From positions 30,778 to 94,777 of the IMG/VR virus record IMGVR_UViG_3300021963_000067: a stretch of 64,000 nt of DNA; one strand, 5' to 3'. This document shows positions 33,421-47,231 of the stretch, in pieces. Numbering within the stretch: position 1 is the stretch's first letter; every line of letters begins with the position of its first letter. The stretch comes from a virus. The notes below the pieces were generated by a model. It had not been told where the DNA came from, made no database searches, and saw only the letters and a list, made by a program, of their open reading frames with translations. The position numbers and the translations under genes were made by a program.

Positions 33421-33459
33421 AACTTTCTTATATAATATATAACAACTATTATTTTAACA

Positions 33460-34257
33460 TCATTTTAATAGTTTGTCAAGGAATTTTTTGTGTAATTTCT
33501 TTGCTAGTTCTATATGGGATTCTAATGGAGGGTGTCCAAATGTGCATTTTCTTGCAACACCGTTTACAATCAGTGGTTGTAAGTATTCTTTTGGCAAAAG
33601 CATATTATCAACACTATTTTTCCAAACTGTGTTGGCAAACGATCTAGTATGCGGGATGTTGAGTTTATCCAATTGCTCTGACATCATGTCGTTGGACATG
33701 GGCTGCATCATTAACTGTATCTTTGTGGTAAGACCGTTGAATAGCTCCAGAATTTTAAAATAGTGAAATACTATATAATCGTCGTTATACATGTCTAGGT
33801 AAAGTTTGCTACCCATATCGTTGGGAATATTCTTAGAAATCAGTGTAGTGATTTTCTCTTTTAATCGAAAATCTATCATGCGATTCATAGAAGTCAATCC
33901 AACTAATACTAGATCGCTATCTAAAATTCGTCCTTGATCATAGTCCATATAGATTTTAAGATACTGTTCATCTAAACCACTACCGTTCATGGCTCTATTT
34001 TCAAAAGGTACATTTAACAGTTTAGCTAATTGTGCTGCCCACGAACTGTTTCTATGCAAAGGATCATCCCACCTTATGTTAAAATCTTTTTTAAAATTAG
34101 CAGTATGTGCCAAAGACGCTGTTTTATTATTTAGGTAATCTTGTTTCCATTGATTGCATTCTTCGAACGACACACCCATAACAATATGGTCCATAATTTC
34201 GTCGCCGGCTGTATAACTGCAACCATAGGCGATAATGCGATTAAAATTTTTATTCAT
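33460..34257 (-). CDS. SGNH-hydrolase-like hypothetical protein
   Basis: AYGCSYTAG, N.A..GSG, GHP...H. Confidence 0.6.
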   Translation of the reverse strand: MNKNFNRIIAYGCSYTAGDEIMDHIVMGVSFEECNQWKQDYLNNKTASLAHTANFKKDFNIRWDDPLHRNSSWAAQLAKLLNVPFENRAMNGSGLDEQYLKIYMDYDQGRILDSDLVLVGLTSMNRMIDFRLKEKITTLISKNIPNDMGSKLYLDMYNDDYIVFHYFKILELFNGLTTKIQLMMQPMSNDMMSEQLDKLNIPHTRSFANTVWKNSVDNMLLPKEYLQPLIVNGVARKCTFGHPPLESHIELAKKLHKKFLDKLLK

Positions 34258-34270
34258 ACTATTACTTATC

Positions 34271-34345
34271 TGGTCCGGCCAGCAGGAATCGAACCCACAT
34301 TCTAGAGGTAGAAGCTCTATGTACTATCCATTGTACTATGGCCGG
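34271..34345 (-). tRNA. tRNA-Arg(TCT)
   Basis: Cloverleaf, loop CT-TCT-AC, CCA. Confidence 0.92.
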
Positions 34346-34350
34346 AAATC

Positions 34351-34424
34351 TGGAGCGGGATAGGAGAATCGAACCCCTAACTAAACCTTGGCAAGGTTTC
34401 GTTTGACCATTAAACTAATCCCGC
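34351..34424 (-). tRNA. tRNA-Gly(GCC)
   Basis: Cloverleaf, GCC, TCCA. Confidence 0.92.
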
Positions 34425-34425
34425 A

Positions 34426-35001
34426 TTATTGATATTCTATATCTACTGCTAGTATAAATCTGTACTGTTCACTTTGAACTATTCCGGGTCTGTGCCATTG
34501 GTCTCCGGGGTAAATTAACCAGCTGCCGTCTTTGGGCCTTACAAAAAACTTACCTTCAGCTTCGGGACCATTGGGAGCCATCTCTGTACCACAGTAGTCT
34601 CTATCCTGCACATCTTCTGGGATGTGTAGGTAAAATATACCGCTTAACATTTTTCCATTAGGCGACTGTGGATGCCAATGGTGGTGCCAAAGATTATCAC
34701 GATTTTCGGCACCCTGCAAATTAGTCATAAATGACCAGGCCATCATGTTAGATACTTTTACTTCACGCCCCAGGTACATAAACACACTAAACAGAAAACT
34801 CATACGATATTTTAACCAAACAGATTCTGGTCTAGCAAATATATTTTCTTTAGTCTGGTATTTTGGACTGTTAGTAAAATAATTACCATCAGCAATGATT
34901 GATTTAATAATGCCTATGGCTTCTTGATTGTCAGCTTGCGTAATTATAGAGCTGAAGTCAAATTTTCTAAAAGTATCGTTATGATCTATTACTGTATGCA
35001 T
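34426..35001 (-). CDS. 2OG-Fe(II) oxygenase-like protein
   Basis: WHHH, LSGIFYLHIP, WHRP...R; start MHTVID. Confidence 0.7.
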   Translation of the reverse strand: MHTVIDHNDTFRKFDFSSIITQADNQEAIGIIKSIIADGNYFTNSPKYQTKENIFARPESVWLKYRMSFLFSVFMYLGREVKVSNMMAWSFMTNLQGAENRDNLWHHHWHPQSPNGKMLSGIFYLHIPEDVQDRDYCGTEMAPNGPEAEGKFFVRPKDGSWLIYPGDQWHRPGIVQSEQYRFILAVDIEYQ

Positions 35002-35029
35002 AGTGAAATATTTAGTGCGTAAATACAGT

Positions 35030-35947
35030 ATGAAAATATTTGTGCAGTCAAATGATACCATCTCTCGAATACAAATTGATATTCTAAATATTCCTCCAAT
35101 AGTCCGGTGGTTTGATCAGTGCATGAAATTACAAGAAACTCATCCTATTACCGGTCAGCTTTTTTTCAACGACTCTGCCACATTGATATACAATCCTGTA
35201 GGCGATGAAGATGAACTCTATTCTGAATTATTGTCAACTGTTTTCAAACTGAAAATTTTACTACTAGAAAAACAAATAACTAAATTTGCCTTGCCCGAAT
35301 TACCCAAAGTGTTTAATCGTGATCAACACTGGTGTAATGACATACACAATCTGTTTGTTGCAGTAAGCGTTTTCCTAGAAAACAACGGAGTTGAATATTG
35401 GAAATTATCAAGCTCGTGGGACAGTAGAATGTTCGAAGCTGCGAAAAAAGTAAATGTGCTAATTCATAAATTAGAAAAATGGGCCTATCCAACTGCTAAC
35501 AGTCGGTATATTAAATCATACGGCCATAAATATCTACAGACAAGATTTGATCTTTCTTATCATGGCCTAGGCCTATGGTTTGAACTTAGTCAAGAAGAAC
35601 AAGAAATCTATCACAGCACATTAAAAAATAATGTGTTTTACGATGTAGTATTCTCAAATGAAATACTGGGCAAAACCTATTATAGAAGTTTCATTGATGA
35701 GGAGAGTGCTAATAGCCCTGCAATATCTGGTATAGATAAAACTTGGGGAAATCTAGATATTAAGCTAGATCACCAACGCGAAGCAATTTTTCGAGATCCT
35801 CAATTTCAAACTTGGACTGAATTAATTAAACAAGATGTTGACATAGCACCTTTAGAGTTTCCCGTAGGATCAATTAATCCTAATAGCGATTTAGATTATT
35901 TTGTAAAAAGAAAAACTACCGAAGTAGTTTTTCATTTTGTAGATTAG
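35030..35947 (+). CDS. Hypothetical protein
   Basis: Start MKIFVQ after TAAATA; opposite strand to the tRNA array. Confidence 0.75.
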   Translation: MKIFVQSNDTISRIQIDILNIPPIVRWFDQCMKLQETHPITGQLFFNDSATLIYNPVGDEDELYSELLSTVFKLKILLLEKQITKFALPELPKVFNRDQHWCNDIHNLFVAVSVFLENNGVEYWKLSSSWDSRMFEAAKKVNVLIHKLEKWAYPTANSRYIKSYGHKYLQTRFDLSYHGLGLWFELSQEEQEIYHSTLKNNVFYDVVFSNEILGKTYYRSFIDEESANSPAISGIDKTWGNLDIKLDHQREAIFRDPQFQTWTELIKQDVDIAPLEFPVGSINPNSDLDYFVKRKTTEVVFHFVD

Positions 35948-36021
35948 TGGAGCGGGGTAAGAGAATCGAACTCTCCGCTTTAGCTTGGAAGGCTAAGGTA
36001 TTACCACTATACGAACCCCGC
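35948..36021 (-). tRNA. tRNA-Gly(TCC)
   Basis: Cloverleaf, TCC, TCCA. Confidence 0.92.
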
Positions 36022-36038
36022 ATACTGTTATTTAACAA

Positions 36039-36245
36039 TCAAGTTTCATGATCCTCTGGAGTACTGGCTAAAGGACTAGTTGACGGTTTTTTCTTTGACC
36101 AGGATGAATAACTAGATCCTTCTTCTCTACTGCTAACATTCCTGCCAATCTTTTGAATGACTCCACCGCGGGCAAGGAACTCTAGGATAGCCGGATCAGT
36201 TTCTACTCTTTCTTCTTCTTTAACTTCTTTGATTTTTTTAAACAT
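36039..36245 (-). CDS. Small protein with SutA-like RNAP-binding motif
   Basis: EFLARGGVIQKIGRNV resembles the SutA core EFLxRGGKVQEI..NV. Confidence 0.55.
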   Translation of the reverse strand: MFKKIKEVKEEERVETDPAILEFLARGGVIQKIGRNVSSREEGSSYSSWSKKKPSTSPLASTPEDHET

Positions 36246-36264
36246 TATGGCCTTTTATAAAAAT

Positions 36265-36341
<77 letters not shown>

Positions 36342-36343
36342 AA

Positions 36344-36493
36344 TTAACTTGGTATTATATGAGGAACGTAAGGAACCGCTCTTGGACCGTGTCGTTGCTG
36401 TAATAGCATACGTGCTTCTTCTGCTGAATTGGCACCCACTCGATCTTTAAATTCTCGACCGTCTATTCTAATTGTTGCTTCATATAATTTCAT
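36344..36493 (-). CDS. Small hypothetical protein (MKLYEATIRIDGREFKDRVGANSAEEARMLLQQRHG...), not in ORF track
   Basis: 49-aa ORF filling the gap exactly. Confidence 0.7.
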   Translation of the reverse strand: MKLYEATIRIDGREFKDRVGANSAEEARMLLQQRHGPRAVPYVPHIIPS

Positions 36494-36496
36494 ATT

Positions 36497-37252
36497 TTAT
36501 TTAAATCCAAACGGACATTTAGATTCTGTTTTTTGATTGTAAAGAGCTTTATGTTGTCCGCCCCACATTGACTTCTTGGTGAAGTTGTTGGCCATGTTGT
36601 TATATTCTTGTTCCGAGACAACATGACTGCGCAATTCAACATCGTTCTCGGATAACGGAATAATCTGTATCAACGGGTCGCCAGCATTTACTGTCAGTGT
36701 TGTTCCTTTTTTAATGAACATGTTTACGTGAGTATTATACTGTGCCTTAAAATCAATTACAGCACTTAGTGCATGAAAATTTGCATGTTGTTCTGTATTG
36801 TGATAGGTACATTGATTCCATGCAAATTTAACACCAGTCTTTTCTTTTACCAACCACGGACTAGAAATCTTTACATGTTGAAACCCTTTATACAAATCTT
36901 CCCAATACATAAAAGGAGGGTGCGGATTAGCATCTAGGCTATTCATAGGATCATGCTTGTAAAACAAACCTTCTCTAGTCATTTCAATTTTAAAGTCTGT
37001 CCAACTAGGAAGAACAAATCCTGTAGTAAACAAGTTAACCATCCCTACACATCTTTTCGATGTGGGAATTGGAATAGTTTCTTTGCTCTTTGGATCCTGT
37101 AAAGACTTTACGTCTATCATAGGTGGTAGTTGTTTCCAACCTTTTGGTACAAACTTATGTGCATGATCGATATTAAACAAATCATGTATAACTTGATTGT
37201 CTATAAAACAATCTACAACTAACTTTTTTCTACGAAAGAAAAACATAATCAC
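36497..37252 (-). CDS. Hypothetical protein (possible dUTPase-like fold)
   Basis: KRC.G..N....GFVLP.W.D, K..SPW, AGDPLIQIIP. Confidence 0.6.
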   Translation of the reverse strand: MIMFFFRRKKLVVDCFIDNQVIHDLFNIDHAHKFVPKGWKQLPPMIDVKSLQDPKSKETIPIPTSKRCVGMVNLFTTGFVLPSWTDFKIEMTREGLFYKHDPMNSLDANPHPPFMYWEDLYKGFQHVKISSPWLVKEKTGVKFAWNQCTYHNTEQHANFHALSAVIDFKAQYNTHVNMFIKKGTTLTVNAGDPLIQIIPLSENDVELRSHVVSEQEYNNMANNFTKKSMWGGQHKALYNQKTESKCPFGFK

Positions 37253-37257
37253 CTCAT

Positions 37258-37331
37258 TGGTTGCGGGACCAGGAATCGAACCTGGGACTCGAGCTTATGA
37301 GACTCGTGTTTTACCGCTTCACTATCCCGCG
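37258..37331 (-). tRNA. tRNA-fMet(CAT), initiator-like
   Basis: C1:A72 mismatch, CAT anticodon; lacks the 3 G-C anticodon-stem pairs. Confidence 0.85.
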
Positions 37332-37337
37332 ATAACT

Positions 37338-37667
37338 TTATAGGTGCTCTCTGCGGCGCTTGAATCCACGGTAGCCCTTCTCTTCATGGCCGGTCCTTGC
37401 TTTGGTCAACATTGGCAAGTTTCTCGGTGTTCCATTGTAGCTACTACAGAAAGCATTTATAAAGTGTCTAGCCACTCACACCACATGAGCCCTAGACCGG
37501 GTGGTTACCCCGTCCACACGTTGTTTCTATTTAGACGACTAGTGTTCTCGCCTTTGTGATTTCTCAAGTCGTTCCTAAGTAGAACCTTGCGGTAGATCCA
37601 ATGCACCGTGCCTATTATGGATAAGACAATTAACCCCCATTTACTAACGGCTATGGGATGCCGGGTT
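37338..37667 (-). ncRNA. Unassigned structured RNA(s)
   Basis: 330 nt with no credible ORF, GC-richer; closing stem TGCTTTCTG/CAGAGAGCA and several further hairpins. Confidence 0.55.
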
Positions 37668-37668
37668 A

Positions 37669-38241
37669 TTAAATAAGACCTTCTGCTGTCAACGTAGCAA
37701 CAACATCGTCGCTCAGTGGCACTTCAGTCTTGATGTTCAACTCCAACACTTCGTCGTTGATCTTCTGTTTTTGCTTCTTGAGATTTTGAATCTCAGTTTT
37801 GGCTTGATCAATCTGCGCCTTGCTAACCACACTGGTACTCACTGTGTCATCACGACCGTACAGACTGGCTCGACTTTCTTCCTTGCGGTTGCGGATCTTG
37901 TCCAACTTGCCGTTGATCACTGCAAGATCACCCACAGGGCTCAGAGTCGACAATTCTGTCAACTGTGCAATACGTTTATCAATGAACGCAGCCTTGGCCA
38001 AAGACAGATCAATTCCACAATTAGAATTAGCTGTGCCCACAAGCCCACGGATGTTGTACAATGCCAACAAGAGTTTTTGTCGACGACTGTCGTTAACGAT
38101 CAACTGATCGTTAGCCTTTTGCATTTCTGCTTGAGCATCTTGAAACTCGTTGATCTCAATGCTGGTTTCAACTTTAATGCCTTTGATGGCTTCGTTGATG
38201 CTGTTCTGGACAGCATTTGCTTTACGTAGGGAAATATTCAT
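37669..38241 (-). CDS. Coiled-coil hypothetical protein
   Basis: 190-aa helical ORF, AAAGGA RBS. Confidence 0.8.
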   Translation of the reverse strand: MNISLRKANAVQNSINEAIKGIKVETSIEINEFQDAQAEMQKANDQLIVNDSRRQKLLLALYNIRGLVGTANSNCGIDLSLAKAAFIDKRIAQLTELSTLSPVGDLAVINGKLDKIRNRKEESRASLYGRDDTVSTSVVSKAQIDQAKTEIQNLKKQKQKINDEVLELNIKTEVPLSDDVVATLTAEGLI

Positions 38242-38467
38242 CTCGTTGTCCTTTTTTCTTTGTCTTAACAGTTTTTAGAAAATCTAATCTAGTATACTTG
38301 CCTTGTTCAATTTCATTCAAGGCCGTTACAATAAATCCATGTTTACCGACTACTCGAGGCGCATGACCATTTTTCAACTCTCTCGCTCGTTGACTTGCGG
38401 CTAATACCATTTCGAATCTATCGCCATATGCTAACACTGCGTCTTCTGATGAAAGTTGATTGTTCAT
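38222..38467 (-). CDS. rpoZ: RNA polymerase omega subunit
   Basis: ED....GDRFEMVLAASQRAREL..G...V.......TALNEIEQGK. Confidence 0.88.
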   Translation of the reverse strand: MNNQLSSEDAVLAYGDRFEMVLAASQRARELKNGHAPRVVGKHGFIVTALNEIEQGKYTRLDFLKTVKTKKKGQRDEYFPT

Positions 38468-38489
38468 AATTTCCTTAGGTTAAAAATAA

Positions 38490-38743
38490 CGGGTCAGCGA
38501 AAGGTCAAGCAATAGACCGGACAATATACAATGAAGAGTTGTAGTCTTCTTTGACAATGTGCAAAATACAATACACAGAGGTCTATATATTTCCGATTAA
38601 CAAATGACAGTCGTTGGGGTCGGATCACATAAACACGTTCCAATTTCAAGTTGGATTGTAAGTTCGGAGTAAGCGTGAAGCTCATTCCTGTGTGTCTATC
38701 CTCATCTACCTTTCACTTTACCGGTTGTGTATTGCTACACAAC
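38490..38743 (-). ncRNA. Long structured leader / ncRNA upstream of rpoZ
   Basis: 5' GCAA hairpin, then long-range stems AGTGAAAGGT/ACCTTTCGCT and ATAGAC/GTCTAT. Confidence 0.6.
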
Positions 38744-38749
38744 AAAACT

Positions 38750-38778
38750 ATTATAGCACTCTTTGTGAGTGTTGTCAA
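38750..38778 (-). promoter_or_regulatory. Sigma70 promoter
   Basis: TTGACA-17-TATAAT. Confidence 0.88.
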
Positions 38779-38793
38779 TGCATTTTGGTAATA

Positions 38794-39540
38794 TTACTTT
38801 GAAAATACCATAATGTTATACAGCGAATTGTTGTTGATATATCGTGTCTCGTCGCCTAATAAGCAATCGAACAGTATGCCCGACTCATCTATATCCGCCA
38901 TAATGTACTTGCTTATTGCGCAAGCCATTCTAACATTTTTTGTTATGTTTTGAACGTAGTTCAATTTAAACCCTTGATCGGCATAAAGATTAATATTAAC
39001 AGGATCAGGACTAGCCTGTATTAGAAGTCCGCCTGGCTCTAACAACCGATAGGCTTCTTTAATATAATTTTCAAACGGATCATAATAGGCTGTTGCTTCT
39101 ACTGTTATAATTGCATCTACACTATTGTTTGCCAGTGGTACAGCCAATGCTGATCCTGTTAAAAATTCTACATCCTTAATAGCATTTTGGCAAAGACTTA
39201 TGTGATTGGGATTTAAATCAACACCTATTAGTTTATTAAACTTATAGTGTTCTTTGATAAATGCCAGTCCACCGCCTTTACCGCAACTTAAATCTAGTAA
39301 AGTTCCTTGATCAGCATGCCGATCAATACGTGCAACGTCAAGACATTTCTTGTAAAGTTGAGCTTGGTATCGCCAAGGTTGAAATTGTTCAGCAAGTTCA
39401 TTATCAGTAGAGACTGTTGGGAATCCGTGTTGATCCAATTCAACATATCCATCATTCATAAAACCGAATCCAGGAATAGACGAAAAGAATCGATTGTACT
39501 TTTCTACTGTATCTAGTTCAAACTGGTTGTAGTTATCCAT
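38794..39540 (-). CDS. Class I SAM-dependent methyltransferase
   Basis: FMNDGY, LDLSCGKGGG, GVDLN, RLLEPGG. Confidence 0.88.
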   Translation of the reverse strand: MDNYNQFELDTVEKYNRFFSSIPGFGFMNDGYVELDQHGFPTVSTDNELAEQFQPWRYQAQLYKKCLDVARIDRHADQGTLLDLSCGKGGGLAFIKEHYKFNKLIGVDLNPNHISLCQNAIKDVEFLTGSALAVPLANNSVDAIITVEATAYYDPFENYIKEAYRLLEPGGLLIQASPDPVNINLYADQGFKLNYVQNITKNVRMACAISKYIMADIDESGILFDCLLGDETRYINNNSLYNIMVFSK

Positions 39541-39543
39541 ACT

Positions 39544-40161
39544 TTAGATCTTTTTAGCTGCCAATTTAACATCCCAAGCAAGGATAGTTCTTGATCCTCG
39601 ACCTTTCCACGGATACACTGTATGAGGAATGTAGCTAGGGAAGATAATCATCTTCATAGGATTGGGGGTGAACCGCCATTGGTCAACAAAGATAAAATGT
39701 CCAGGATTGCGGATAACAGGAAGCCTGAACTCGATCACAGCATCTGATATATTGTCAGTTAAATCCAGCTCTGGAACATCGATATAGATGTTGCCGCTGA
39801 TATGTGCTTCATGACTATGCAGAGCTTGATAATCGCCTGCTGTCTGTCGGATAGTCCAAGCAGACACAAGTACTGGCTGAAAAGCAGCGAGATCATTTCT
39901 GCCACTTTGTTTTGCCTGCGCATCTAGATATTCTTGACATTGTGCCTCAACGTATCGTTTGATATGTCCAATATCTAGATTAAATTCATTTGGTAATAGC
40001 TGAATTTGCTGTCCTCCACGAATGCTAATAGCAGGATTGCCTGCATCATTAAGTTCTGACTTAGTGTGTGCAGTATCTACTATGTTTTTTAAATTAGTGA
40101 ATACATCTGCTGGTACATCAGCAACTGCCATTACCGTGGGATTAAAATATGCAAATTTCAT
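39544..40161 (-). CDS. Putative 2OG-Fe(II) oxygenase (TIGR02466-like)
   Basis: SAW......YQALHSH, SGNIY, FPSYIPHTVYP....R. Confidence 0.85.
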   Translation of the reverse strand: MKFAYFNPTVMAVADVPADVFTNLKNIVDTAHTKSELNDAGNPAISIRGGQQIQLLPNEFNLDIGHIKRYVEAQCQEYLDAQAKQSGRNDLAAFQPVLVSAWTIRQTAGDYQALHSHEAHISGNIYIDVPELDLTDNISDAVIEFRLPVIRNPGHFIFVDQWRFTPNPMKMIIFPSYIPHTVYPWKGRGSRTILAWDVKLAAKKI

Positions 40162-40175
40162 CTATTACCTATATA

Positions 40176-40249
40176 TGGTGCCCCTACACAGAATCGAACT
40201 GCAAATTACGGATTACAAAACCGTCGTTATACCATTTAACTATAAGGGC
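40176..40249 (-). tRNA. tRNA-Thr(TGT)
   Basis: Loop TT-TGT-AA, ACCA. Confidence 0.88.
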
Positions 40250-40259
40250 TTAAAAACTG

Positions 40260-40335
40260 TGGTGGAAGTGGTCGGGATCGAACCGACTACCTACTGCTTG
40301 CAAAGCAGCCGCTCTCCCAAATGAGCTACACCCCC
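40260..40335 (-). tRNA. tRNA-Ala(TGC)
   Basis: TGC, G3:U70, ACCA. Confidence 0.93.
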
Positions 40336-40341
40336 AACTTA

Positions 40342-40593
40342 TTACTTATTATCTAATTGCTGAGCCTGATACTTTTCTTGAGCTTCTTTTAACTGTTGCT
40401 CATTTAGCCCATGCCATCCAATACAATCACCTGTCGGCGAACGACCGCATCCGCATGTACCAATTTTACCTTCTAGATTTGCTCTAACCTGCATGTCCTT
40501 GTCCTTTTTAAAAATTGTGTCCCAGTTATTGTCAAAAGTTTTTAGAGGAACACTAAATGGTCTTGCTCTAGAACCCTTTCCACCGTCTGCCAT
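40342..40593 (-). CDS. Small protein with CDGSH-like Fe-S/Zn finger
   Basis: CGCGRSPTGDCIGWH; internal RBS and ATG at MQVRA. Confidence 0.65.
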   Translation of the reverse strand: MADGGKGSRARPFSVPLKTFDNNWDTIFKKDKDMQVRANLEGKIGTCGCGRSPTGDCIGWHGLNEQQLKEAQEKYQAQQLDNK

Positions 40594-40770
40594 TTAATTC
40601 CCCTGCGGACCTGATGGACGTTTTTCACGCTTAGGCTGTACAGCCGCACACAGTTCTGCATCGATCATTGCACGTTTCCATGCATTGCGATCTTCTACAT
40701 TTCGAAATCCTGTAGACGCTAACATCATTTTAGTTAGGCTACTCATTTTATAAGTCTTAGTGGGTTTCAT
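40594..40770 (-). CDS. Small hypothetical protein (MKPTKTYKMSSLTKMML...), not in ORF track
   Basis: 58 aa, AAGGT RBS, stop abuts the next start. Confidence 0.7.
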   Translation of the reverse strand: MKPTKTYKMSSLTKMMLASTGFRNVEDRNAWKRAMIDAELCAAVQPKREKRPSGPQGN

Positions 40771-40790
40771 ATTTTACCTTTTTAATTAAC

Positions 40791-40880
40791 TGGTGGAGAG
40801 CCAGGGAGTCGAACCCTGTGAGCGTATTACTACACTCTACAGATTAGCAATCTGCTGCATTACCATCCTGCCCGCTCTCC
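40791..40880 (-). tRNA. tRNA-Ser(GCT)
   Basis: Long variable arm, GCT, CCA. Confidence 0.92.
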
Positions 40881-40887
40881 TAACTTC

Positions 40888-40963
40888 TGGTGGGTCCTGA
40901 CAGTCTCGAACTGCCGACATTCTGCGTGTAAGGCAGACGCTCTACCAACTGAGCTAAGGACCC
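40888..40963 (-). tRNA. tRNA-Val(TAC)
   Basis: Cloverleaf, TAC, ACCA. Confidence 0.93.
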
Positions 40964-40975
40964 TTCCTTTTATTC

Positions 40976-41058
40976 TGGTGCCCCAAGAGAGACTCGAACT
41001 CTCACGCACTAGGCACTGGCTTCTAAGACCAGCGTGTCTACCATTCCACCATCGGGGC
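40976..41058 (-). tRNA. tRNA-Leu(TAG)
   Basis: Variable arm, TAG, ACCA. Confidence 0.93.
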
Positions 41059-41080
41059 AAATTTCTAACTAACAATATAC

Positions 41081-41109
41081 ATTATATAGTCTAACTACAG
41101 AGTTGTCAA
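41081..41109 (-). promoter_or_regulatory. Internal sigma70 promoter in the tRNA array
   Basis: TTGACA-17-TATAAT. Confidence 0.85.
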
Positions 41110-41138
41110 CAACTTTGTGAAAAATATATAAAATAATT

Positions 41139-41230
41139 TGGTACCAGCGGAGGGAATCGAACCCTCTCAAGAACGCTAATCTGGCGCTAAAAGTCTTATA
41201 AGGACTCTCTGACTACCAAGTCTCGCTGGC
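41139..41230 (-). tRNA. Non-canonical tRNA with TAT anticodon (nominally Ile, reads AUA)
   Basis: Acceptor GCCAGCG/CGCTGGT, mini D-arm GACT-TGGT-AGTC, extended anticodon stem, loop CT-TAT-AA, long V-arm. Confidence 0.75.
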
Positions 41231-41238
41231 ATTAATTT

Positions 41239-41322
41239 TGGTACGACTGGAGAGACTCGAACCCTCAATCCCGAAGGCGGCAGATTTTAAGTCTGCTGTG
41301 TATACCATTCCACCACAGTCGC
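41239..41322 (-). tRNA. tRNA-Leu(TAA)
   Basis: Variable arm, TAA, ACCA. Confidence 0.92.
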
Positions 41323-41326
41323 ATTT

Positions 41327-41402
41327 TGGTACCAACTTGAGGGATCGAACCTCATTCCACGGTGCTTCAAACCGTTGCTATGACCACATCAGCTAAGTTG
41401 GC
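41327..41402 (-). tRNA. tRNA-Phe(GAA)
   Basis: Loop TT-GAA-GC, ACCA. Confidence 0.9.
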
Positions 41403-41406
41403 AAAT

Positions 41407-41480
41407 TGGGGTGAAGGGGAGAATCGAACTCTCTCTTACTGTTTCACAGACAGCCGTGCAGCCATTACACTACCAACACC
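41407..41480 (-). tRNA. tRNA-His(GTG)
   Basis: G-1:C73, GTG; two U:U mismatches in acceptor. Confidence 0.85.
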
Positions 41481-41642
41481 ATTGACCTTTTCCAACACAT
41501 CCTTACGCATAAGGAACTGTCGTTGATTGTCAGGACGATGAACTAAAAGATATTCAACGCCATCTATATTATGAAGTTGACGAGAGTCTTCGCAGACTAC
41601 TCGTTCGTTGTTTAAACGATTTTTAAAAGTAATAGGTTTCAT
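41436..41642 (-). CDS. Small hypothetical protein (MKPITFKNR...) reading into tRNA-His
   Basis: AAGGAG RBS; stop lies inside tRNA-His. Confidence 0.7.
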   Translation of the reverse strand: MKPITFKNRLNNERVVCEDSRQLHNIDGVEYLLVHRPDNQRQFLMRKDVLEKVNGVGSVMAARLSVKQ

Positions 41643-41659
41643 TTTATATCTCCTTGTAA

Positions 41660-41734
41660 TGGCCGGTCCGGAGAGATTCGAACTCCCGACAGCTGGTTTC
41701 GAAGACCAGAACTCTTCCACTGAGCTACGGACCG
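41660..41734 (-). tRNA. tRNA-Arg(TCG)
   Basis: Loop CT-TCG-AA, GCCA. Confidence 0.92.
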
Positions 41735-41739
41735 ATGTA

Positions 41740-41813
41740 TGGCAGAGGGTGAAGGAATCGAACCTTCAATGACGGAATCAAAATCCGTAGTTATACCATT
41801 TAACTAACCCCCA
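41740..41813 (-). tRNA. tRNA-Gln(TTG)
   Basis: Loop TT-TTG-AT, GCCA. Confidence 0.9.
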
Positions 41814-41819
41814 ACAATT

Positions 41820-41894
41820 TGGTGGTAATGGAAAGAGTTGAACTTTCACTGGGCACCGTATGAAGGTGTTGCACTACCGTTATGCTACATTACC
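41820..41894 (-). tRNA. tRNA-Met(CAT), elongator-type (Ile2 not excluded)
   Basis: Paired G1-C72, loop TT-CAT-AC. Confidence 0.85.
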
Positions 41895-41986
41895 ATAAGT
41901 AAACACACTAGCCGCCGCAGATCCGCAACGCCGCAGGCTAGGCCCTAAGGAACTATGTCCGTTCTTTCACTAATGTGTTTGCTTAT
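41895..41986 (-). ncRNA. Stem-closed structured spacer RNA
   Basis: Inverted ends ATAAGTAAACAC/GTGTTTGCTTAT around a GC-rich core. Confidence 0.5.
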
Positions 41987-42060
41987 GGTAGGGGCACAGA
42001 GAATCGAACTCTGATTAATAGGTTAAAAGCCTACTACTTTAGCCGTTAAGTTATACCCCC
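41986..42060 (-). tRNA. tRNA-Lys(TTT)
   Basis: Loop CT-TTT-AA, ACCA. Confidence 0.9.
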
Positions 42061-42111
42061 GTCATCTTATCACTCTTGTCACTAGTCATGACAGATCTCC
42101 TTTAAAAAAAT

Positions 42112-42186
42112 TGGTAGCCTATCTTGGGAACGATCCAAGGACCACCGCCTTATCAAGACGGTGCTCTACCACTGAGCTAATAGGCT
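42112..42186 (-). tRNA. tRNA-Ile(GAT)
   Basis: Loop TT-GAT-AA, ACCA. Confidence 0.92.
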
Positions 42187-42195
42187 GTATTAGGC

Positions 42196-42303
42196 GGACG
42201 AATCATTATCACTGCCACGCCCAGGTCATTCGGCAGGGGTACGCCACTTGGCGGTTAGGAAAGGTAACCCGTGTGCATTTAACACTGCTCAAATGATTCG
42301 TCC
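42196..42303 (-). ncRNA. Stem-closed structured RNA
   Basis: Perfect 12-bp closing stem GGACGAATCATT/AATGATTCGTCC; internal CTGCC/GGCAG and CGCCA/TGGCG. Confidence 0.6.
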
Positions 42304-42308
42304 ATGGT

Positions 42309-42398
42309 TGGTGGAAGCGGTGAGATTCGAACTCACGGACCCTTTCGGATCGTCTGTTTTCAAGACAGGTGCAATAAACCGGACTCTGCCACACTTCC
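42309..42398 (-). tRNA. tRNA-Ser(TGA)
   Basis: Long variable arm, TGA, CCA. Confidence 0.93.
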
Positions 42399-42403
42399 GT
42401 AAT

Positions 42404-42483
42404 TGGTACCCCAGGCGGGAGTTGAACCCGCAGTAAATTTCTCCTTTTGAGAGAGACGACTTTGCCAATTTGTCCACTGGGGC
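42404..42483 (-). tRNA. tRNA-Leu(CAA)
   Basis: Loop CT-CAA-AA; short variable region. Confidence 0.88.
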
Positions 42484-42538
42484 GAAAAAGAAAAACTCCT
42501 GCGTAATGACTATGTCTTAGAAGCAGGAGCCGTGTTGT

Positions 42539-42616
42539 TGGAGTGGCGGGTCAGATTTGAACTGACGGTTTTACGGATTTGCAATCCGTTGCAATGGGCC
42601 TCTCTGCCACCGCCAC
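42539..42616 (-). tRNA. tRNA-Cys(GCA)
   Basis: GCA, U73, CCA. Confidence 0.9.
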
Positions 42617-42617
42617 A

Positions 42618-43271
42618 TTAAATTTTAGATATTTTAAAACCGTAGAGTTTGCTTTGTATAACCTCTGGCAAAAAATTCATGCTCATTGTAATTCTAGGAA
42701 CATCAACCGGAGGTTGATAATACCCGTGCATAATTTCGCTAGGCCATATTAACAAATCCCCTTGCTCTACCTGTGCAGAACGATAGGGATCAGTATACGG
42801 AGTGCTAACATCGGGCTCAATTTCTATCATTGCCTTACGCAAAGAAGCAGGAGTCCTAGGGTTATGAAAATCTAATCCCACGTGTTTACTAGGATCTACT
42901 TGCACATAGTAAGTCGCACTGATTAACGAGTTATTATGTACATGAGGATTTTGTCTACCGCCTAGATTAGAATTAACCCAGACATTAAGATCTACAAATT
43001 CTCTGTGGGAAATTCCCAAAAATTTTTCAGCATAATCGCTTACACAAGATCTCACCCAGGCCATAAACTCTGGAAGCTCTTGTGTAGGAAATTTACCGTC
43101 ATTGTAATAGTGAAGAAATCCGTCTTCTGTGTGCTCCTGATTGTCATCGGGGCACTTGTCAACTATGTCTAAAATCTGTTGACGTAAAAGTACATGATCA
43201 TCTCTCCTGTATTTGGCAACTGCCACAGGGAAAAGATCTAGATGTCCTGCAAAATTTTCATTCATACTCAT
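42618..43271 (-). CDS. Putative 2OG-Fe(II) oxygenase (TIGR02466-like)
   Basis: WVN.....Q.PHVHNNS.ISATYY, WPS...H......R.TMSMN. Confidence 0.85.
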   Translation of the reverse strand: MSMNENFAGHLDLFPVAVAKYRRDDHVLLRQQILDIVDKCPDDNQEHTEDGFLHYYNDGKFPTQELPEFMAWVRSCVSDYAEKFLGISHREFVDLNVWVNSNLGGRQNPHVHNNSLISATYYVQVDPSKHVGLDFHNPRTPASLRKAMIEIEPDVSTPYTDPYRSAQVEQGDLLIWPSEIMHGYYQPPVDVPRITMSMNFLPEVIQSKLYGFKISKI

Positions 43272-43286
43272 ACTTATTATTCTATT

Positions 43287-43361
43287 TGGTACACCGTAGG
43301 AGAATCGAACTCCTCTTGCCGGGATGAAAACCCGGAGTCCTGACCGATAGACGAACGGTGC
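43287..43361 (-). tRNA. tRNA-Glu(TTC)
   Basis: Loop TT-TTC-AT, CCA. Confidence 0.9.
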
Positions 43362-43367
43362 ATAAAT

Positions 43368-43441
43368 TGGCGTACCCCCAGAGACTCGAACTCCGACGAA
43401 CAGTTTTGGAGACTGCTATGCTGCCATTACATTAGGGATAC
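43368..43441 (-). tRNA. tRNA-Trp(CCA)
   Basis: Loop CT-CCA-AA, GCCA. Confidence 0.9.
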
Positions 43442-43447
43442 ATTGTT

Positions 43448-43523
43448 TGGCTGGCAAACCTGGGCTCGAACCAGGGACATTTCGGTTAACAGCCGAACGC
43501 TCTACCAACTGAGCTATATGCCA
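43448..43523 (-). tRNA. tRNA-Asn(GTT)
   Basis: Loop CT-GTT-AA, GCCA. Confidence 0.92.
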
Positions 43524-44023
43524 ATATTTCTTTTCGCTAGATTTTTCAATCTAACATTTCTACCTCTAAAGGTGGGCGTTTGACTATGACAGTTTGGACA
43601 CAAGATTTTTAAATTTTCAATCTTGTTGTTATCTCTAACACCATCAATATGCTCCAGTTCTAAGCTCAACGGTTTTCCGTTGTACTCATTCCCGCAACCA
43701 CACCCTTCACAGGTATAATCTCTTTCATGTAGCAATCGCTTACGTAATGCACCATGATGCATTTCTTCATACGGTCTGTTCCATGATGTTTTTAAATTAG
43801 CTTCTTGGACTTTTTTCTGATGGGCATCAAAATCATATTTTAACATTTTTTCTTTGTTAAAATCTTTTCTGCCTTGTTCATCAAATTGAGACCAGAAATC
43901 TAAAGATTTTGTTCTTTTCTTTTCTATAGCAGACTCGCTAAACACTCTACTGTTAGCACACGTTCTACTACAAAATTTTCCATTGAGCTCATGCTCTTTG
44001 CTACACTTAGGACATATTTTCAT
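43514..44023 (-). CDS. HNH endonuclease (free-standing homing-type)
   Basis: CPKC...FCSRTC; CEGC...LELEHIDG...NN...NL..LCPNCH. Confidence 0.9.
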   Translation of the reverse strand: MKICPKCSKEHELNGKFCSRTCANSRVFSESAIEKKRTKSLDFWSQFDEQGRKDFNKEKMLKYDFDAHQKKVQEANLKTSWNRPYEEMHHGALRKRLLHERDYTCEGCGCGNEYNGKPLSLELEHIDGVRDNNKIENLKILCPNCHSQTPTFRGRNVRLKNLAKRNIGI

Positions 44024-44078
44024 AATATCGAACCTCCGATACTATTTAGCAAGTATGTCCTTGGTTCAAGAATAAACT

Positions 44079-44153
44079 TGGCGACTCGACGGGGAATCGA
44101 ACCCCGATAATCGGATAGACAATCCGAAGTAATGACCTTTATACGATCGAGCC
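44079..44153 (-). tRNA. tRNA-Asp(GTC)
   Basis: Loop TT-GTC-TA (pyrimidine at 37), GCCA. Confidence 0.9.
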
Positions 44154-44162
44154 AAAAAATTG

Positions 44163-44357
44163 TTAAGCAACGCCACGAAGGGTGATACGACACCTTTCCT
44201 GGCCACCATATTGTGCTTCTGCAATACGAACAGCATCGCCTGATGTCTGAGCAGTAATTACAGTTTCAAATTGGCGAAGACTCTCAGTTTGGAAAGCACC
44301 ACTGGTACCTTCACCGGTATAAGAACCTACTTCAACATAAACACGATACGATTGCAT
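44163..44357 (-). CDS. Small hypothetical protein (MQSYRVYVEV...)
   Basis: AAAGGAA RBS, own promoter. Confidence 0.75.
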   Translation of the reverse strand: MQSYRVYVEVGSYTGEGTSGAFQTESLRQFETVITAQTSGDAVRIAEAQYGGQERCRITLRGVA

Positions 44358-44387
44358 TTGGTTTCCTTTTAAGTTCACAGTATTAAT

Positions 44388-44416
44388 AGTATAACACCAA
44401 TCTAGAAAAAAGTCAA
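44388..44416 (-). promoter_or_regulatory. Sigma70 promoter
   Basis: TTGACT-17-TATACT. Confidence 0.75.
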
Positions 44417-44425
44417 CCATTATTT

Positions 44426-44514
44426 TGGTGGAAGTGGTAGGATTCGAACCTACAATGTTTCTTATGTGGCGGATTTACAGTCCGTTGCCTTCAACCAATT
44501 CAGCGCACACTTCC
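44426..44514 (-). tRNA. tRNA-Tyr(GTA)
   Basis: Variable arm, loop CT-GTA-AA, ACCA. Confidence 0.92.
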
Positions 44515-44522
44515 AATTTGTT

Positions 44523-44735
44523 CACACTCTCCGCTATGCTTTTAGACACCGTTCAAAGGTGAATGGAGAGTGTGTATTAAAGCATACTCGGCTTGTGGCC
44601 TTATCCCCTAAACATTCTAGTTTCGGAATATGCTTTAATACGCTACCATTTTTCTCTCCACAAAAGGAGTTCCATCCGGTAGGCCGCCCGTTTGTCCATG
44701 TTTTAAGTGCAGACTGGGACCTCGTTTCCCTTAAC
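44523..44735 (-). ncRNA. Tandem stem-closed structured RNAs
   Basis: CACACTCTCC/GGAGAGTGTG (44523-44574), GTATTAAAGCATA/TATGCTTTAATAC (44574-44641), then a GC-rich segment. Confidence 0.5.
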
Positions 44736-44745
44736 ACTTTTGCTA

Positions 44746-44919
44746 TTAATTTACGCTAAACGTTGGTAATTTTGCCAACGATTCGCGATATATTCTAGCA
44801 CGTTCAAACTTATCTTGAATAAGTTTTTGAAGTTGTTCTTGAGTCATTTCCCCAAAAGCAGTTTCATAAGCCTGTTCAACAATTCGTTCGTTTAATTTTT
44901 CGTAATTTATATCTATCAT
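44746..44919 (-). CDS. Small hypothetical protein (MIDINYEKLNERIVEQAYE...), not in ORF track
   Basis: 57 aa, AAAGGAA RBS immediately after the terminator. Confidence 0.7.
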   Translation of the reverse strand: MIDINYEKLNERIVEQAYETAFGEMTQEQLQKLIQDKFERARIYRESLAKLPTFSVN

Positions 44920-44931
44920 TTTTCCTTTGCT

Positions 44932-44968
44932 AAAAACAAAAAACCCCAGGGTTTTAATCCTAGGGTCC
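44932..44968 (-). terminator. Intrinsic terminator / attenuator hairpin
   Basis: GGACCCTAGG-loop-CCTGGGGTTT followed by TTTGTTTTT. Confidence 0.85.
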
Positions 44969-44994
44969 TTGAAGTTTGCGGTGTATGTTTTACT

Positions 44995-45141
44995 TTACAC
45001 TACGGTCTCCCGGACCCTGCGAATCTCTGGTGTGCGATCATATGATAGACTTCCACACTCAATAGATAACCAATTGGAGGCTATAAAGCCTGCCTGTTTG
45101 GGCATCGTATTAAATTGTTGATGTCTAACGTTTGATTGCAT
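44995..45141 (-). CDS. Putative attenuator leader peptide (48 aa, all 20 amino acids)
   Basis: MQSNVRHQQFNTMPKQAGFIASNWLSIECGSLSYDRTPEIRRVRETVV*; contains AGGGTCC complementary to the terminator 5' arm. Confidence 0.7.
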   Translation of the reverse strand: MQSNVRHQQFNTMPKQAGFIASNWLSIECGSLSYDRTPEIRRVRETVV

Positions 45142-45190
45142 TTTGCTTTCTTTTTCCTTTTATAGGCAGCACCTTGCTGTCTATGTTTTA

Positions 45191-45304
45191 ATTATACAGT
45201 TATTTAGTCTCTGTGTCAACCCCTATTTGCATTTCTGGCAAAAAAGTTTTGACGCCTTCCTAATCAACTGTGTGTATTATATTGTCTTTTTATTTATGTG
45301 TCAA
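45191..45304 (-). promoter_or_regulatory. Two tandem consensus sigma70 promoters at the head of the tRNA array
   Basis: TTGACA-17-TATAAT at 45191-45219 and 45276-45304, each with TAAATA in the spacer. Confidence 0.88.
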
Positions 45305-45342
45305 CTAAAATATGGCCACATAATGTGGCTTTTTTACAACAT

Positions 45343-45597
45343 TTAATCAATCGGGGTCTCGCCACTGATTAAAATATGTTTGCCAATTTCAAAAAGACCA
45401 ACACTACCTGGCAGGTCCATTGCTGCCACATGTATTTGGCAAATGCCATCATTGTCAATGCTTGCGGCTACAAATTCTTTTATGCTACCATCTTCAACTT
45501 CTTTTTTAATAAACTCAAGAACTTCAAGCATGGCCTTCTTTTGTTCTTCTTCTTGAATCTGTTCTTTGCGTCTAGTATTAATGCTAACGACTTCCAT
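45343..45597 (-). CDS. Hypothetical protein
   Basis: 84-aa ORF in gene run. Confidence 0.75.
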   Translation of the reverse strand: MEVVSINTRRKEQIQEEEQKKAMLEVLEFIKKEVEDGSIKEFVAASIDNDGICQIHVAAMDLPGSVGLFEIGKHILISGETPID

Positions 45598-45606
45598 GTT
45601 TAACCT

Positions 45607-46164
45607 TTATAGTAAATGATCTGCAATGCCAAGATCGATAACTTCTTGTGGTGTTAGATAGACATCACTAGCGGGCAAGAGTTTTTTCTTGATCACACTA
45701 GGAGCAAGTCCAGTGGCTTCTTTCAATACCGCTACCATCATTTCATTGCTGATCTCATTGCCCTTCATAGATGCTTTGAGATCGTGATACTTGCCTTCTG
45801 AATTATCTGTAAATTGATGGCACATAAATGTAGCATTTTTTCCAGCGTATCTTTGACCGTGTGTTCCAGAAGCCGCAATTAAAAATGCCGCACTCATCGC
45901 CGATCCAATTGTAATAGTGCGAATAGGATGTTCGCTGGATTTCATAACATCAACTAGGGCAAGTGCAGAATACAAATCTCCACCAGTTGAGTTGATATAT
46001 AGAGTTAGAATTTTTTCACGGACATCAAAGTTTTCATAGATAATCCATTTAATACACTCGTTGACGTTTTCGTCAGTAATTTCACCTGATAGGAAATGAA
46101 CTGAATTTTCCAGTAATTTTAGGTCAACGCGATCGCTGGCATTGAACTCATCAATTTTTTTCAC
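45607..46164 (-). CDS. clpP: ClpP-like protease subunit
   Basis: LYINSTGG, AMSAA, MCHQ, DVYLTPQE...LGIAD; GTG start after AAGGAG. Confidence 0.85.
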   Translation of the reverse strand: MKKIDEFNASDRVDLKLLENSVHFLSGEITDENVNECIKWIIYENFDVREKILTLYINSTGGDLYSALALVDVMKSSEHPIRTITIGSAMSAAFLIAASGTHGQRYAGKNATFMCHQFTDNSEGKYHDLKASMKGNEISNEMMVAVLKEATGLAPSVIKKKLLPASDVYLTPQEVIDLGIADHLL

Positions 46165-46211
46165 GGCTGCTCCTTGGACATTATTACTTATCATCGTTAA
46201 TAATTATACTA

Positions 46212-46592
46212 TCAGTTAATAGTAAAAGCACCTACAGCCCAGCCAATAATAGCGATATATGTCAAATAATGGAGGGCTTGATCTAGTCCAAACCAAACCC
46301 AAAAAGATCGATCAGCAGGAGTTAGTCCTTTATTCAGCTGTTGCTTTGCCCAATCGATATGATAGTGTGCTGCCATATCGAATAATGCGGCAAAGACAGC
46401 CATTGATCCTAAAAAAGGTACCAGTATTAGCCATGTAAACATAGCATGAAACAGAGCATGGTCTACACCACCGCGAGCACCATATAGACCTTTCTGCTCA
46501 ATCATGTAGGAAAACTGCAATACAAAATCACATATAAAATGCTTGACGCCAAAGAGTGCCAAAAGCAGAAGAATCAGCTGAAATTCTGTCAT
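46212..46592 (-). CDS. DUF3307 membrane protein
   Basis: KHFICDFVLQ, HALFH, HYHIDWAK, GLDQALH. Confidence 0.85.
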   Translation of the reverse strand: MTEFQLILLLLALFGVKHFICDFVLQFSYMIEQKGLYGARGGVDHALFHAMFTWLILVPFLGSMAVFAALFDMAAHYHIDWAKQQLNKGLTPADRSFWVWFGLDQALHYLTYIAIIGWAVGAFTIN

Positions 46593-46774
46593 ACGTAATC
46601 TCGAAACATCTGCTTACGGCCATCTTCACCAATATGGAGATCAAATATATCCTTAACCGTGGTCATCATAGCACAGGCCAACATCAGTTGATCTTGCCTA
46701 TCGTCGCACATCATGATCTGTCGATCAATAGGTTCCATTAGTTCTATCATTCGTTTTTTTATAGGATCATTCAT
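46589..46774 (-). CDS. Hypothetical protein
   Basis: Coupled ORF. Confidence 0.7.
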   Translation of the reverse strand: MNDPIKKRMIELMEPIDRQIMMCDDRQDQLMLACAMMTTVKDIFDLHIGEDGRKQMFRDYV

Positions 46775-47231
46775 TTTGTTCCTTGGTTAATTCACACATT
46801 AACTGAAAATGATCGTAGGCTTTACGAACACTGTCGTGCTTCATCAGTTTGTCTGCTTCTGCTTGCATAGCCTTTACAGCTTCTTCGCAGGCTTCTCTAG
46901 CACTAGGCCACTCTAGCTGACGTGCTTCTTCACCAAACTCTTTGACTAGGTTTTCCCAGGCTTTTTTCTGACCGGGAGTAAGTGGTTTTGATTTTGTACG
47001 AAGATCGCTAGCCTTCCGGATAGCTTCACTAATCTTATCTTCGGCTACACGCCCTGCGGCAATCATCGGAGCATAATCTGGATTGATATTAAATCGTCGA
47101 CTGCTACCACCTGGGTAAACTTGCACTAGATGTGTGCCTTTTGGAAAACTATCACAGAACTCAGCAGAGTATGTGCTATGCGGAACATAGCGCCGACCCT
47201 TCTTAACGTAAAAGATAGTTTCGTTGCTCAT
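46767..47231 (-). CDS. Hypothetical protein
   Basis: Start MSNETIF. Confidence 0.75.
   Translation of the reverse strand: MSNETIFYVKKGRRYVPHSTYSAEFCDSFPKGTHLVQVYPGGSSRRFNINPDYAPMIAAGRVAEDKISEAIRKASDLRTKSKPLTPGQKKAWENLVKEFGEEARQLEWPSAREACEEAVKAMQAEADKLMKHDSVRKAYDHFQLMCELTKEQNE

Follow-up and report, generated by a model that had tools for sequence, protein, structure and literature searches.

The window analyzed here, 64,000 nucleotides long, is part of a 94.8-kb IMG/VR virus record from an uncultured freshwater giant phage. On its minus strand, ahead of a long run of tRNA genes, lies a compact leader whose elements follow one another in the order P1, P2, 5' stem-loop, purine-rich spacer, leader ORF, terminator, 57-amino-acid ORF, noncoding stretch, and tRNA array. 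An earlier note on this DNA had proposed that the leader is an attenuator at the head of the array, and every element it described was found on the minus strand where it had placed it, including the two consensus promoters, both of which match the sigma-70 consensus at 12 of 12 positions. No second copy of the leader occurs in the same virus record. The features discussed below are the following.

45276..45304, minus: promoter P1, TTGACA-17-TATAAT, 12/12 match to the sigma-70 consensus
45191..45219, minus: promoter P2, TTGACA-17-TATAAT, 12/12 match to the sigma-70 consensus
45162..45184, minus: 5' stem-loop, ATAGACAGC (45184-45176) with GCTGCCTAT (45170-45162), starting at about the P2 transcription start
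44995..45141, minus: leader ORF, 48 codons plus UAA, with 20 amino acids, 38 distinct codons, and 25 decoding classes
45007..45018, minus: predicted antiterminator, 5' strands AGGGUCC (45018-45012), a bulged G, and GGAG (45010-45007)
44978..45003, minus: predicted antiterminator, inner hairpin GU.GUGUA / UACAC.GC, whose 5' arm and loop hold the stop codon
44962..44974, minus: predicted antiterminator, 3' strands CUUC (44974-44971), AA, and GGACCCU (44968-44962)
44932..44970, minus: predicted intrinsic terminator, 12-pair stem 44970-44939, loop AUUAAAAC, U run to 44932
44515..44919, minus: cargo before the first tRNA, a 57-amino-acid ORF (44919-44746) and about 230 nt of noncoding sequence
41139..44514, minus: 17 tRNA genes (Tyr to Ile-UAU) between the candidate attenuator and the next 12/12 promoter
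44416-44388, minus: internal promoter, 10/12
41109-41081, minus: internal promoter, 12/12
38778-38750, minus: internal promoter, 12/12

The leader, its relatives, and the tRNA array

Relatives of the leader were numerous in environmental collections. A scan with a profile of the leader peptide returned 92 IMG/VR stretches, 281 metagenome stretches, and one 6.2-kb contig, and a 21-nt pattern from the ORF body was found in 55 viral contigs. With the ClpP-like neighbor as the query we obtained 20 loci, ten of which (L002-L011, nine distinct sequences) carry the leader at 75 to 88% nucleotide identity; the distant ClpP-like loci (L012-L021) have no tRNA array nearby and were uninformative. This neighbor is a serine protease gene upstream of the leader (45607-46194, minus; PHROG 94, head maturation protease, E = 7e-27); its synteny with the leader extends to ten relatives (L002-L011) but not to more distant ones, and it reaches at most 37% identity to cultured phages. 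Some leader-bearing contigs are 345 to 383 kb long and thus come from very large phages. No relative of the leader was found outside this phage clade in the collections searched. A candidate in a Sediminibacterium chromosome (L158) was set aside as a 14-residue chance match inside a long ORF. The 6.2-kb contig (L157, JBBAKF010000113.1), which encodes a complete leader with all 20 amino acids, had been binned in a Polynucleobacter metagenome-assembled genome; it is probably a phage fragment, and the binning is a weak hint at Polynucleobacter as a host.

Both hexamers of P1 are largely conserved among relatives, and P2, with a predicted transcription start at about 45184, is conserved in all eight of the relatives aligned upstream. 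In two relatives, insertions of 2.3 kb (L010, 6825-9162) and 1.2 kb (L004, 6857-8036) occupy the interval between an 84-amino-acid ORF and P1, with the leader otherwise conserved. In four freshwater RNA libraries, assembled contigs of relatives span the leader together with parts of the sequence downstream, and several continue past the terminator into unlike sequence; transcript ends and levels are not readable from such contigs.

Between the terminator and tRNA-Tyr we detected no promoter-like site on the same strand, and from this the cargo at 44515..44919 is predicted to depend on read-through. The cargo differs among relatives. In the window its noncoding part (44515-44745, minus) separates the 57-amino-acid ORF, to which no PHROG family could be assigned, from tRNA-Tyr. 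This noncoding part has no match in Rfam and is covered by contigs from freshwater RNA libraries, and in two relatives (L011 and L002) its homologue directly follows the terminator, without the 57-amino-acid ORF.

The array itself consists of 27 same-strand tRNA genes (44514-34271, minus), which between them serve all 20 amino acids. All loci whose sequence continues for more than about 500 nt downstream have a tRNA array on the same strand, beginning 200 to 970 nt past the terminator, with up to 32 tRNAs within 6 kb among the relatives. Relatives differ in which tRNA comes first and in gene order, so the association of leader and array is conserved but the array has been reshuffled. Between tRNA-Asp and tRNA-Asn is an ORF for an HNH endonuclease (43514-44023, minus; PHROG 10822, E = 3e-27), and homing-type insertions may explain the differing array order among relatives.

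Three internal promoters reported in the earlier note, at 44388, 41081, and 38750, are all present. The distal tRNAs have promoters of their own (41109-41081 and 38778-38750), and so a switch in the leader would boost the array and not be its sole gate, as that note had cautioned. From the two internal 12/12 matches, these distal tRNAs look constitutively driven. The promoter at 41109-41081 ends 23 nt before tRNA-Leu(UAG) and is accompanied by neither a leader nor a terminator. Just ahead of it lies a 92-nt tRNA with an atypical cloverleaf (41139-41230, minus), which ARAGORN calls Ile(UAU) and whose best Rfam match is tRNA-Sec at 33 bits, below threshold; as tRNA-Ile(UAU) it would decode an AUA codon of the leader that is conserved in 45 of 61 variants.

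RNA structures around the stop codon

The 5' hairpin described earlier is present in the window with eight of its nine pairs and one A.C mismatch. Relatives have either perfect pairing or wholly different paired sequences at this position, several stem sequences occurring among them, and in the helix drawn by RNAalifold (columns 34-39/46-51) two pairs were changed on both sides in 12 of 36 sequences. The stem-loop covaries strongly, and a reasonable guess is that it stabilizes the 5' end.

At the other end of the leader, GGACCCT (44968-44962) in the 5' arm of the terminator starts 26 nt after the stop codon of the ORF, the spacing that had been reported, and the terminator stem, in which columns 284-295 pair with columns 306-317, hardly varies among 36 sequences. 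Codons 42 to 44 of the ORF do contain the AGGGTCC (45018-45012) that had been recognized as complementary to this arm. The 7-bp pairing of AGGGUCC with GGACCCU on which the earlier note built its antiterminator thus stands, but the structure extends further than the note had drawn it. It is a three-tier stem of about 57 nt, with AGGGUCC/GGACCCU as the outer tier, GGAG (or GAGG) paired with CUUC (or CUCC) in the middle, and an inner hairpin that holds the stop codon. When the RNA of each distinct variant was folded up to the terminator 5' arm, the three-tier stem was part of the minimum-energy fold in 72 of 72 variants, at -20 to -32 kcal/mol.

GGACCCU belongs both to the antiterminator 3' strand and to the terminator 5' arm. 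Once the terminator 3' arm was added, the minimum-energy structure alternated between antiterminator and terminator from variant to variant, which implies that the two states are nearly equal in energy and mutually exclusive. The exclusion that had been claimed from the window is thereby borne out by the shared strand, by the alternation of folds, and by covariation. In alignment A2, 91.9% of the cells in the antiterminator were paired, compared to 28 to 47% with partners displaced by one to three columns. The score for covariation was 0.216, compared to at most 0.063 for displaced partners, and none of 500 shuffles reached it. Seven pairs of the antiterminator in this alignment were changed on both sides. 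The inner hairpin, with five of its seven pairs changed on both sides, formed in every variant folded. The pair flanking the outer helix was A-U in 26 sequences, G-C in 6, and G-U in 4 but never A-C, and in one variant (L058) the helix itself is GGGUUC with GAACCC. GGGUCC is otherwise near-invariant, yet it is read in two frames, as (A)GG GUC C (RV) or as GGG UCC (GS), which argues for a constraint at the level of the RNA, not of the peptide.

The fold of the whole leader is more stable than that of shuffled sequences (z = -5.4), and its untranslated minimum-energy form contains the antiterminator and not the terminator. A trp-type attenuator in the strict sense would have a 1:2 anti-antiterminator hairpin. 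The only candidate for one, GCCC/GGGU (4 bp), is without compensatory changes and is disrupted in four sequences, and we rejected that assignment. Since no 1:2 anti-antiterminator was found, the untranslated leader is predicted to read through.

Such a stable predicted structure, together with conserved synonymous sites and long invariant stretches in the ORF body (for instance, the 21 nt common to 55 contigs), would also suit a switch made of RNA only, comparable to a riboswitch or a T-box, which senses a ligand, a protein, or tRNA directly and in which the open frame is a by-product. The helices predicted in the ORF body, however, are without compensatory changes. In addition, an Rfam cmscan of 33000-47000 with E up to 1 returned only tRNAs and subthreshold chance matches, none of them within 44930-45300, so that neither the Rfam leader families nor T-boxes nor riboswitches matched the leader. 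The behavior of the frame bears on this alternative as well.

The leader ORF and its amino acid content

The 48-codon ORF with all 20 amino acids and 38 distinct codons that had been read from the window was confirmed at 45141-44995. Its frame is open in 104 distinct variants, with an invariant ATG. Indels in the ORF body are of 3 or 6 nt, and near GGGUCC paired indels of +2 and +1 shift the local frame and then regain the same UAA stop. The distance from GGGUCC to the stop is 14 or 15 nt in 49 of 61 variants, and the stop lies mostly 23 to 27 nt before GGACCC. A ribosome at this stop would have melted the inner and middle helices and would abut the outer 5' strand, leaving the terminator 5' arm free. 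In the alignments, then, the position of the stop is the geometry expected of a leader-peptide attenuator. An open frame kept in this way, with indels that preserve or restore it, is difficult to reconcile with the RNA-only switch, and the retention of all 20 amino acids by relocation, described below, would be meaningless for an untranslated RNA. We therefore hold that alternative to be highly improbable.

The start of the ORF is less canonical. The Shine-Dalgarno-like motif is weak or atypical, an AAGGA 13 nt from the ATG in the window and only a GAG at about -10 in relatives. The earlier note had entered this long spacing as a caveat; the spacing is as it said, but it carries little weight because most of the phage's genes lack such a motif: 49 of the 66 ORFs of at least 120 codons in the window have no Shine-Dalgarno-like 4-mer within 22 nt of the first ATG, a rough count based on naive starts. 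As a rough indication, this phage may rely little on Shine-Dalgarno pairing.

Although open, the frame does not evolve like that of a protein gene. Variability in the leader is equal at the three codon positions (0.157, 0.156, and 0.165). Across the same eight genomes, the leader shows 62% amino acid identity and 84% codon identity at conserved residues, compared to 75% and 56%, respectively, for the ClpP-like neighbor. Lower amino acid identity combined with higher codon identity than in this gene implies a peptide that is comparatively free and codons, or RNA, that are constrained. The strong nucleotide conservation of the ORF body could reflect a further RNA function.

These patterns weigh on a second alternative, namely, that the ORF encodes a functional small protein with strong promoters and a terminator of its own, the stem at the stop codon being only a 3' stabilizer and the tRNA genes being nearby by accident. 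A core, FNTMPKQ.G..A..W..IN..SLSYDRTPE, is conserved in all variants, and a terminated leader RNA or a leader peptide may itself be functional, as described for Sinorhizobium rnTrpL and peTrpL. A small protein under selection does not, however, account for amino acid identity below, and synonymous identity above, that of a neighboring real gene, nor for the lack of an excess of third-position changes, and the residues that occur only once shift position instead of being fixed. The peptide fell into no PHROG family and, by tblastn, matched no cultured phage; leader DNA likewise had no match among cultured phages, and with 7 kb of surrounding sequence only tRNA genes matched. The covariation of the terminator arm with a segment of the ORF and the reading of GGGUCC in two frames would also be left unexplained, and we regard a small protein as a very unlikely explanation.

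What the peptide conserves is its composition. All 20 amino acids are present in 99 of the 104 distinct peptides (46 to 53 amino acids); the variants newly found in the genome and metagenome scans, which are independent collections, were complete in 41 of 43 cases. The five incomplete variants have lost V once, K once, and C three times. By chance, all 20 amino acids would be expected in 2.5% of 48-amino-acid windows drawn from the phage's own ORFs, or in 3.9% under an independent-residue model. Because relatives share ancestry, we also used a tree-aware null, in which each alignment column evolved independently along the tree with its observed number of changes (1,000 runs). Under this null a mean of 26 of 61 peptides were complete (standard deviation, 7; maximum, 48), compared to the 58 of 61 observed; a plain column shuffle gave 29 ± 3 of 61.

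The residues that occur only once indicate how completeness is kept. Cys is single-copy in 53 of 61 peptides and is found in at least seven sequence contexts. Where SLSYDR has become SL(S)LDR and its Tyr is lost, the residue turns up anew within ASYW or EIYTR; the closely related L143 and L144 differ in where their His lies; and Phe, Lys, and internal Met also relocate among variants. In these alignments, single copies of Cys, Tyr, His, Phe, and Lys are relocated and not lost. Pairs of near neighbors, with six or fewer differences, gave four relocations versus three Cys losses, which are too few to add weight.

Completeness extends to decoding. The leader in the window uses 25 of the 25 decoding classes of the phage tRNA set, as do only 0.08% of 47-codon windows in the phage's genes, and 44 of 61 homologues are complete in this respect. 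Content of leader and array match in that both cover all 20 amino acids, but lapses in decoding classes are not mirrored by the arrays: where a leader lacks a class and its array is long (L072, L036, L032, and L047), the array still has that tRNA, most other arrays being truncated. The comparative data thus point to selection that keeps all 20 amino acids in the ORF and usually all 25 decoding classes.

Not every codon would be equally informative. The earlier note had supposed that a stall at any codon gives a signal; this would hold for codons upstream of GGGUCC but not for those at or after it, where the stalled ribosome would itself cover the antiterminator strand. Among the first 61 variants, two have their only Cys at or after GGGUCC. 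If the leading edge of the ribosome is set at 14 nt, the part of the ORF upstream of GGGUCC is complete for the 20 amino acids in only 11 of 61 leaders; the number is low since the conserved Glu of TPE lies just beyond the limit. A reach of about 8 nt, which is an estimate, would bring this Glu into the sensing zone, whose boundary is uncertain.

A candidate sensor of decoding capacity

Taken together, the evidence favors, with a probability of roughly 0.7, a ribosome-mediated transcription attenuator that reports the overall decoding capacity of the cell, or its supply of aminoacyl-tRNA. The core of the earlier reading is in this sense supported by comparative evidence, namely, exclusion with covariation, a kept frame and stop, and selection on composition. 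Across the regions before tRNA arrays in relatives, a comparison that the earlier note had suggested, ORF position and completeness of composition were conserved, and the antiterminator showed compensatory changes. We infer that the leader ORF is translated, that the switch alters termination, and that poor translation leads to more read-through.

In the mechanism we propose, the two consensus promoters would start a leader RNA of about 250 nt. AGGGUCC-G-GGAG would pair with CUUC-AA-GGACCCU around the stop-codon hairpin and use up the terminator 5' arm, so that the default state is the antiterminator, with read-through into the variable cargo and then the tRNA array. A ribosome that is not delayed would read the 48 codons, reach the stop in time, and melt and cover the 5' half of the antiterminator; with this half covered, the terminator would form and transcription would stop. 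Any delay upstream would leave the antiterminator intact and permit read-through. Every amino acid is encoded in the ORF, and hence, whichever charged tRNA ran short, the ribosome would be slowed, and the cargo and the 17 proximal tRNA genes would be transcribed more. The net result would be a feedback loop that senses supply.

The same switch might instead report general ribosome activity or the timing of infection (host shut-off, ribosome-targeting toxins, or a scarcity of ribosomes early in infection), in which case completeness of the peptide would matter little. Any failure of translation would give read-through from an RNA whose untranslated minimum-energy fold holds the antiterminator, and a weak ribosome-binding site would sensitize the switch to ribosome availability. 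There is, moreover, a tRNA array in Anabaena that is induced by any ribosome-targeting antibiotic (PMC8421152). This alternative nevertheless leaves the selection for 20 amino acids, and usually for 25 decoding classes, without explanation, and we consider it unlikely. A sensor of aminoacyl-tRNA supply is the reading that we carry into the comparison with known systems.

Several of these systems share parts of the proposed logic. In the leaders of amino acid operons (trpL, hisL, pheL, leuL, and the multivalent thrL and ilvL), one to three amino acids occur in runs, and the genes controlled encode biosynthetic enzymes. Like these leaders, the phage leader has an ORF close to the promoter, a terminator, and an antiterminator that cannot coexist with it and whose 5' strand would be occupied by a ribosome at the end of the ORF; in both, a stalled ribosome would lead to read-through. 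In the operon leaders, however, a 1:2 pause or anti-antiterminator hairpin gives termination without translation, whereas the phage leader has no supported 1:2 hairpin and no match to an Rfam leader family. Leaders of the ermK, vmlR, and bmrCD type likewise combine a short ORF with a terminator and an antiterminator, so that slowed translation leads to read-through, but their signal is a drug-bound ribosome at a particular peptide motif, not the supply of each aminoacyl-tRNA.

The nearest published case is the whiB7/wblC upstream ORF (uORF) attenuator of Actinobacteria, of which the phage leader is an analogue and not a member. The amino acids of that uORF decide which starvations are sensed, and whiB7 is activated by inhibition of tRNAs, synthetases, or biosynthetic genes for 18 of the 20 amino acids (PMC10274678). 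The content of the uORF varies by species and is enriched in alanine; every amino acid except Cys is present in Mycobacterium smegmatis, and several are absent in Mycobacterium tuberculosis. It is also reported for whiB7 that a uORF stripped of its only codon for an amino acid no longer responds to starvation for that amino acid, other responses being kept (PMC10274678). Both systems have a fairly long uORF of mixed composition followed by a terminator and antiterminator, with a stall leading to read-through. The whiB7 leader, however, controls a transcription factor in a bacterial chromosome, whereas the phage leader precedes tRNA genes; the two are unrelated in sequence, no WhiB-family regulator lies downstream of the phage leader, and in the phage it is completeness itself that is conserved (99 of 104 variants).

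A tRNA gene array that responds to impaired translation is known from the trn operon of Anabaena PCC 7120, in which about two dozen accessory tRNA genes are switched on when translation is impaired, under the control of the protein repressor TrcR at the promoter (PMC8421152, PMC10272220). The likeness is an array switched by translational stress; the difference is the use of a repressor in place of a leader, and the terms "leader peptide," "attenuat-," and "terminator" are absent from both reports. A full-text literature search found no published account of a leader-peptide attenuator before phage tRNA genes.

Phage tRNA arrays are usually viewed as aids to codon usage or as spares against anticodon nucleases; how they are regulated has, to our knowledge, been little discussed. 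We raise, as a tentative possibility, that the switch serves as an alarm against host immunity of the kind that targets tRNA (PrrC, RloC, VapC, PARIS, or the retron-Ec78 type) or against a response that depletes tRNA. Removal of any single host tRNA would then cause a stall in the all-codon leader, and the phage's complete tRNA set would flood the cell. If this is true, the leader would be an inducible, target-agnostic counterdefense contained in an RNA of about 250 nt.

The cassette, at about 250 nt with sigma-70 consensus promoters, might also serve as a compact reporter of a shortage of any aminoacyl-tRNA. As proposed here, the leader would extend trp operon logic to the full set of 20 amino acids, under what appears to be an unusual constraint, in which selection acts on the completeness of a peptide's composition and not on its sequence. 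Our findings suggest that giant freshwater phages of one large clade gauge decoding capacity directly and tune the transcription of their tRNA genes to it.
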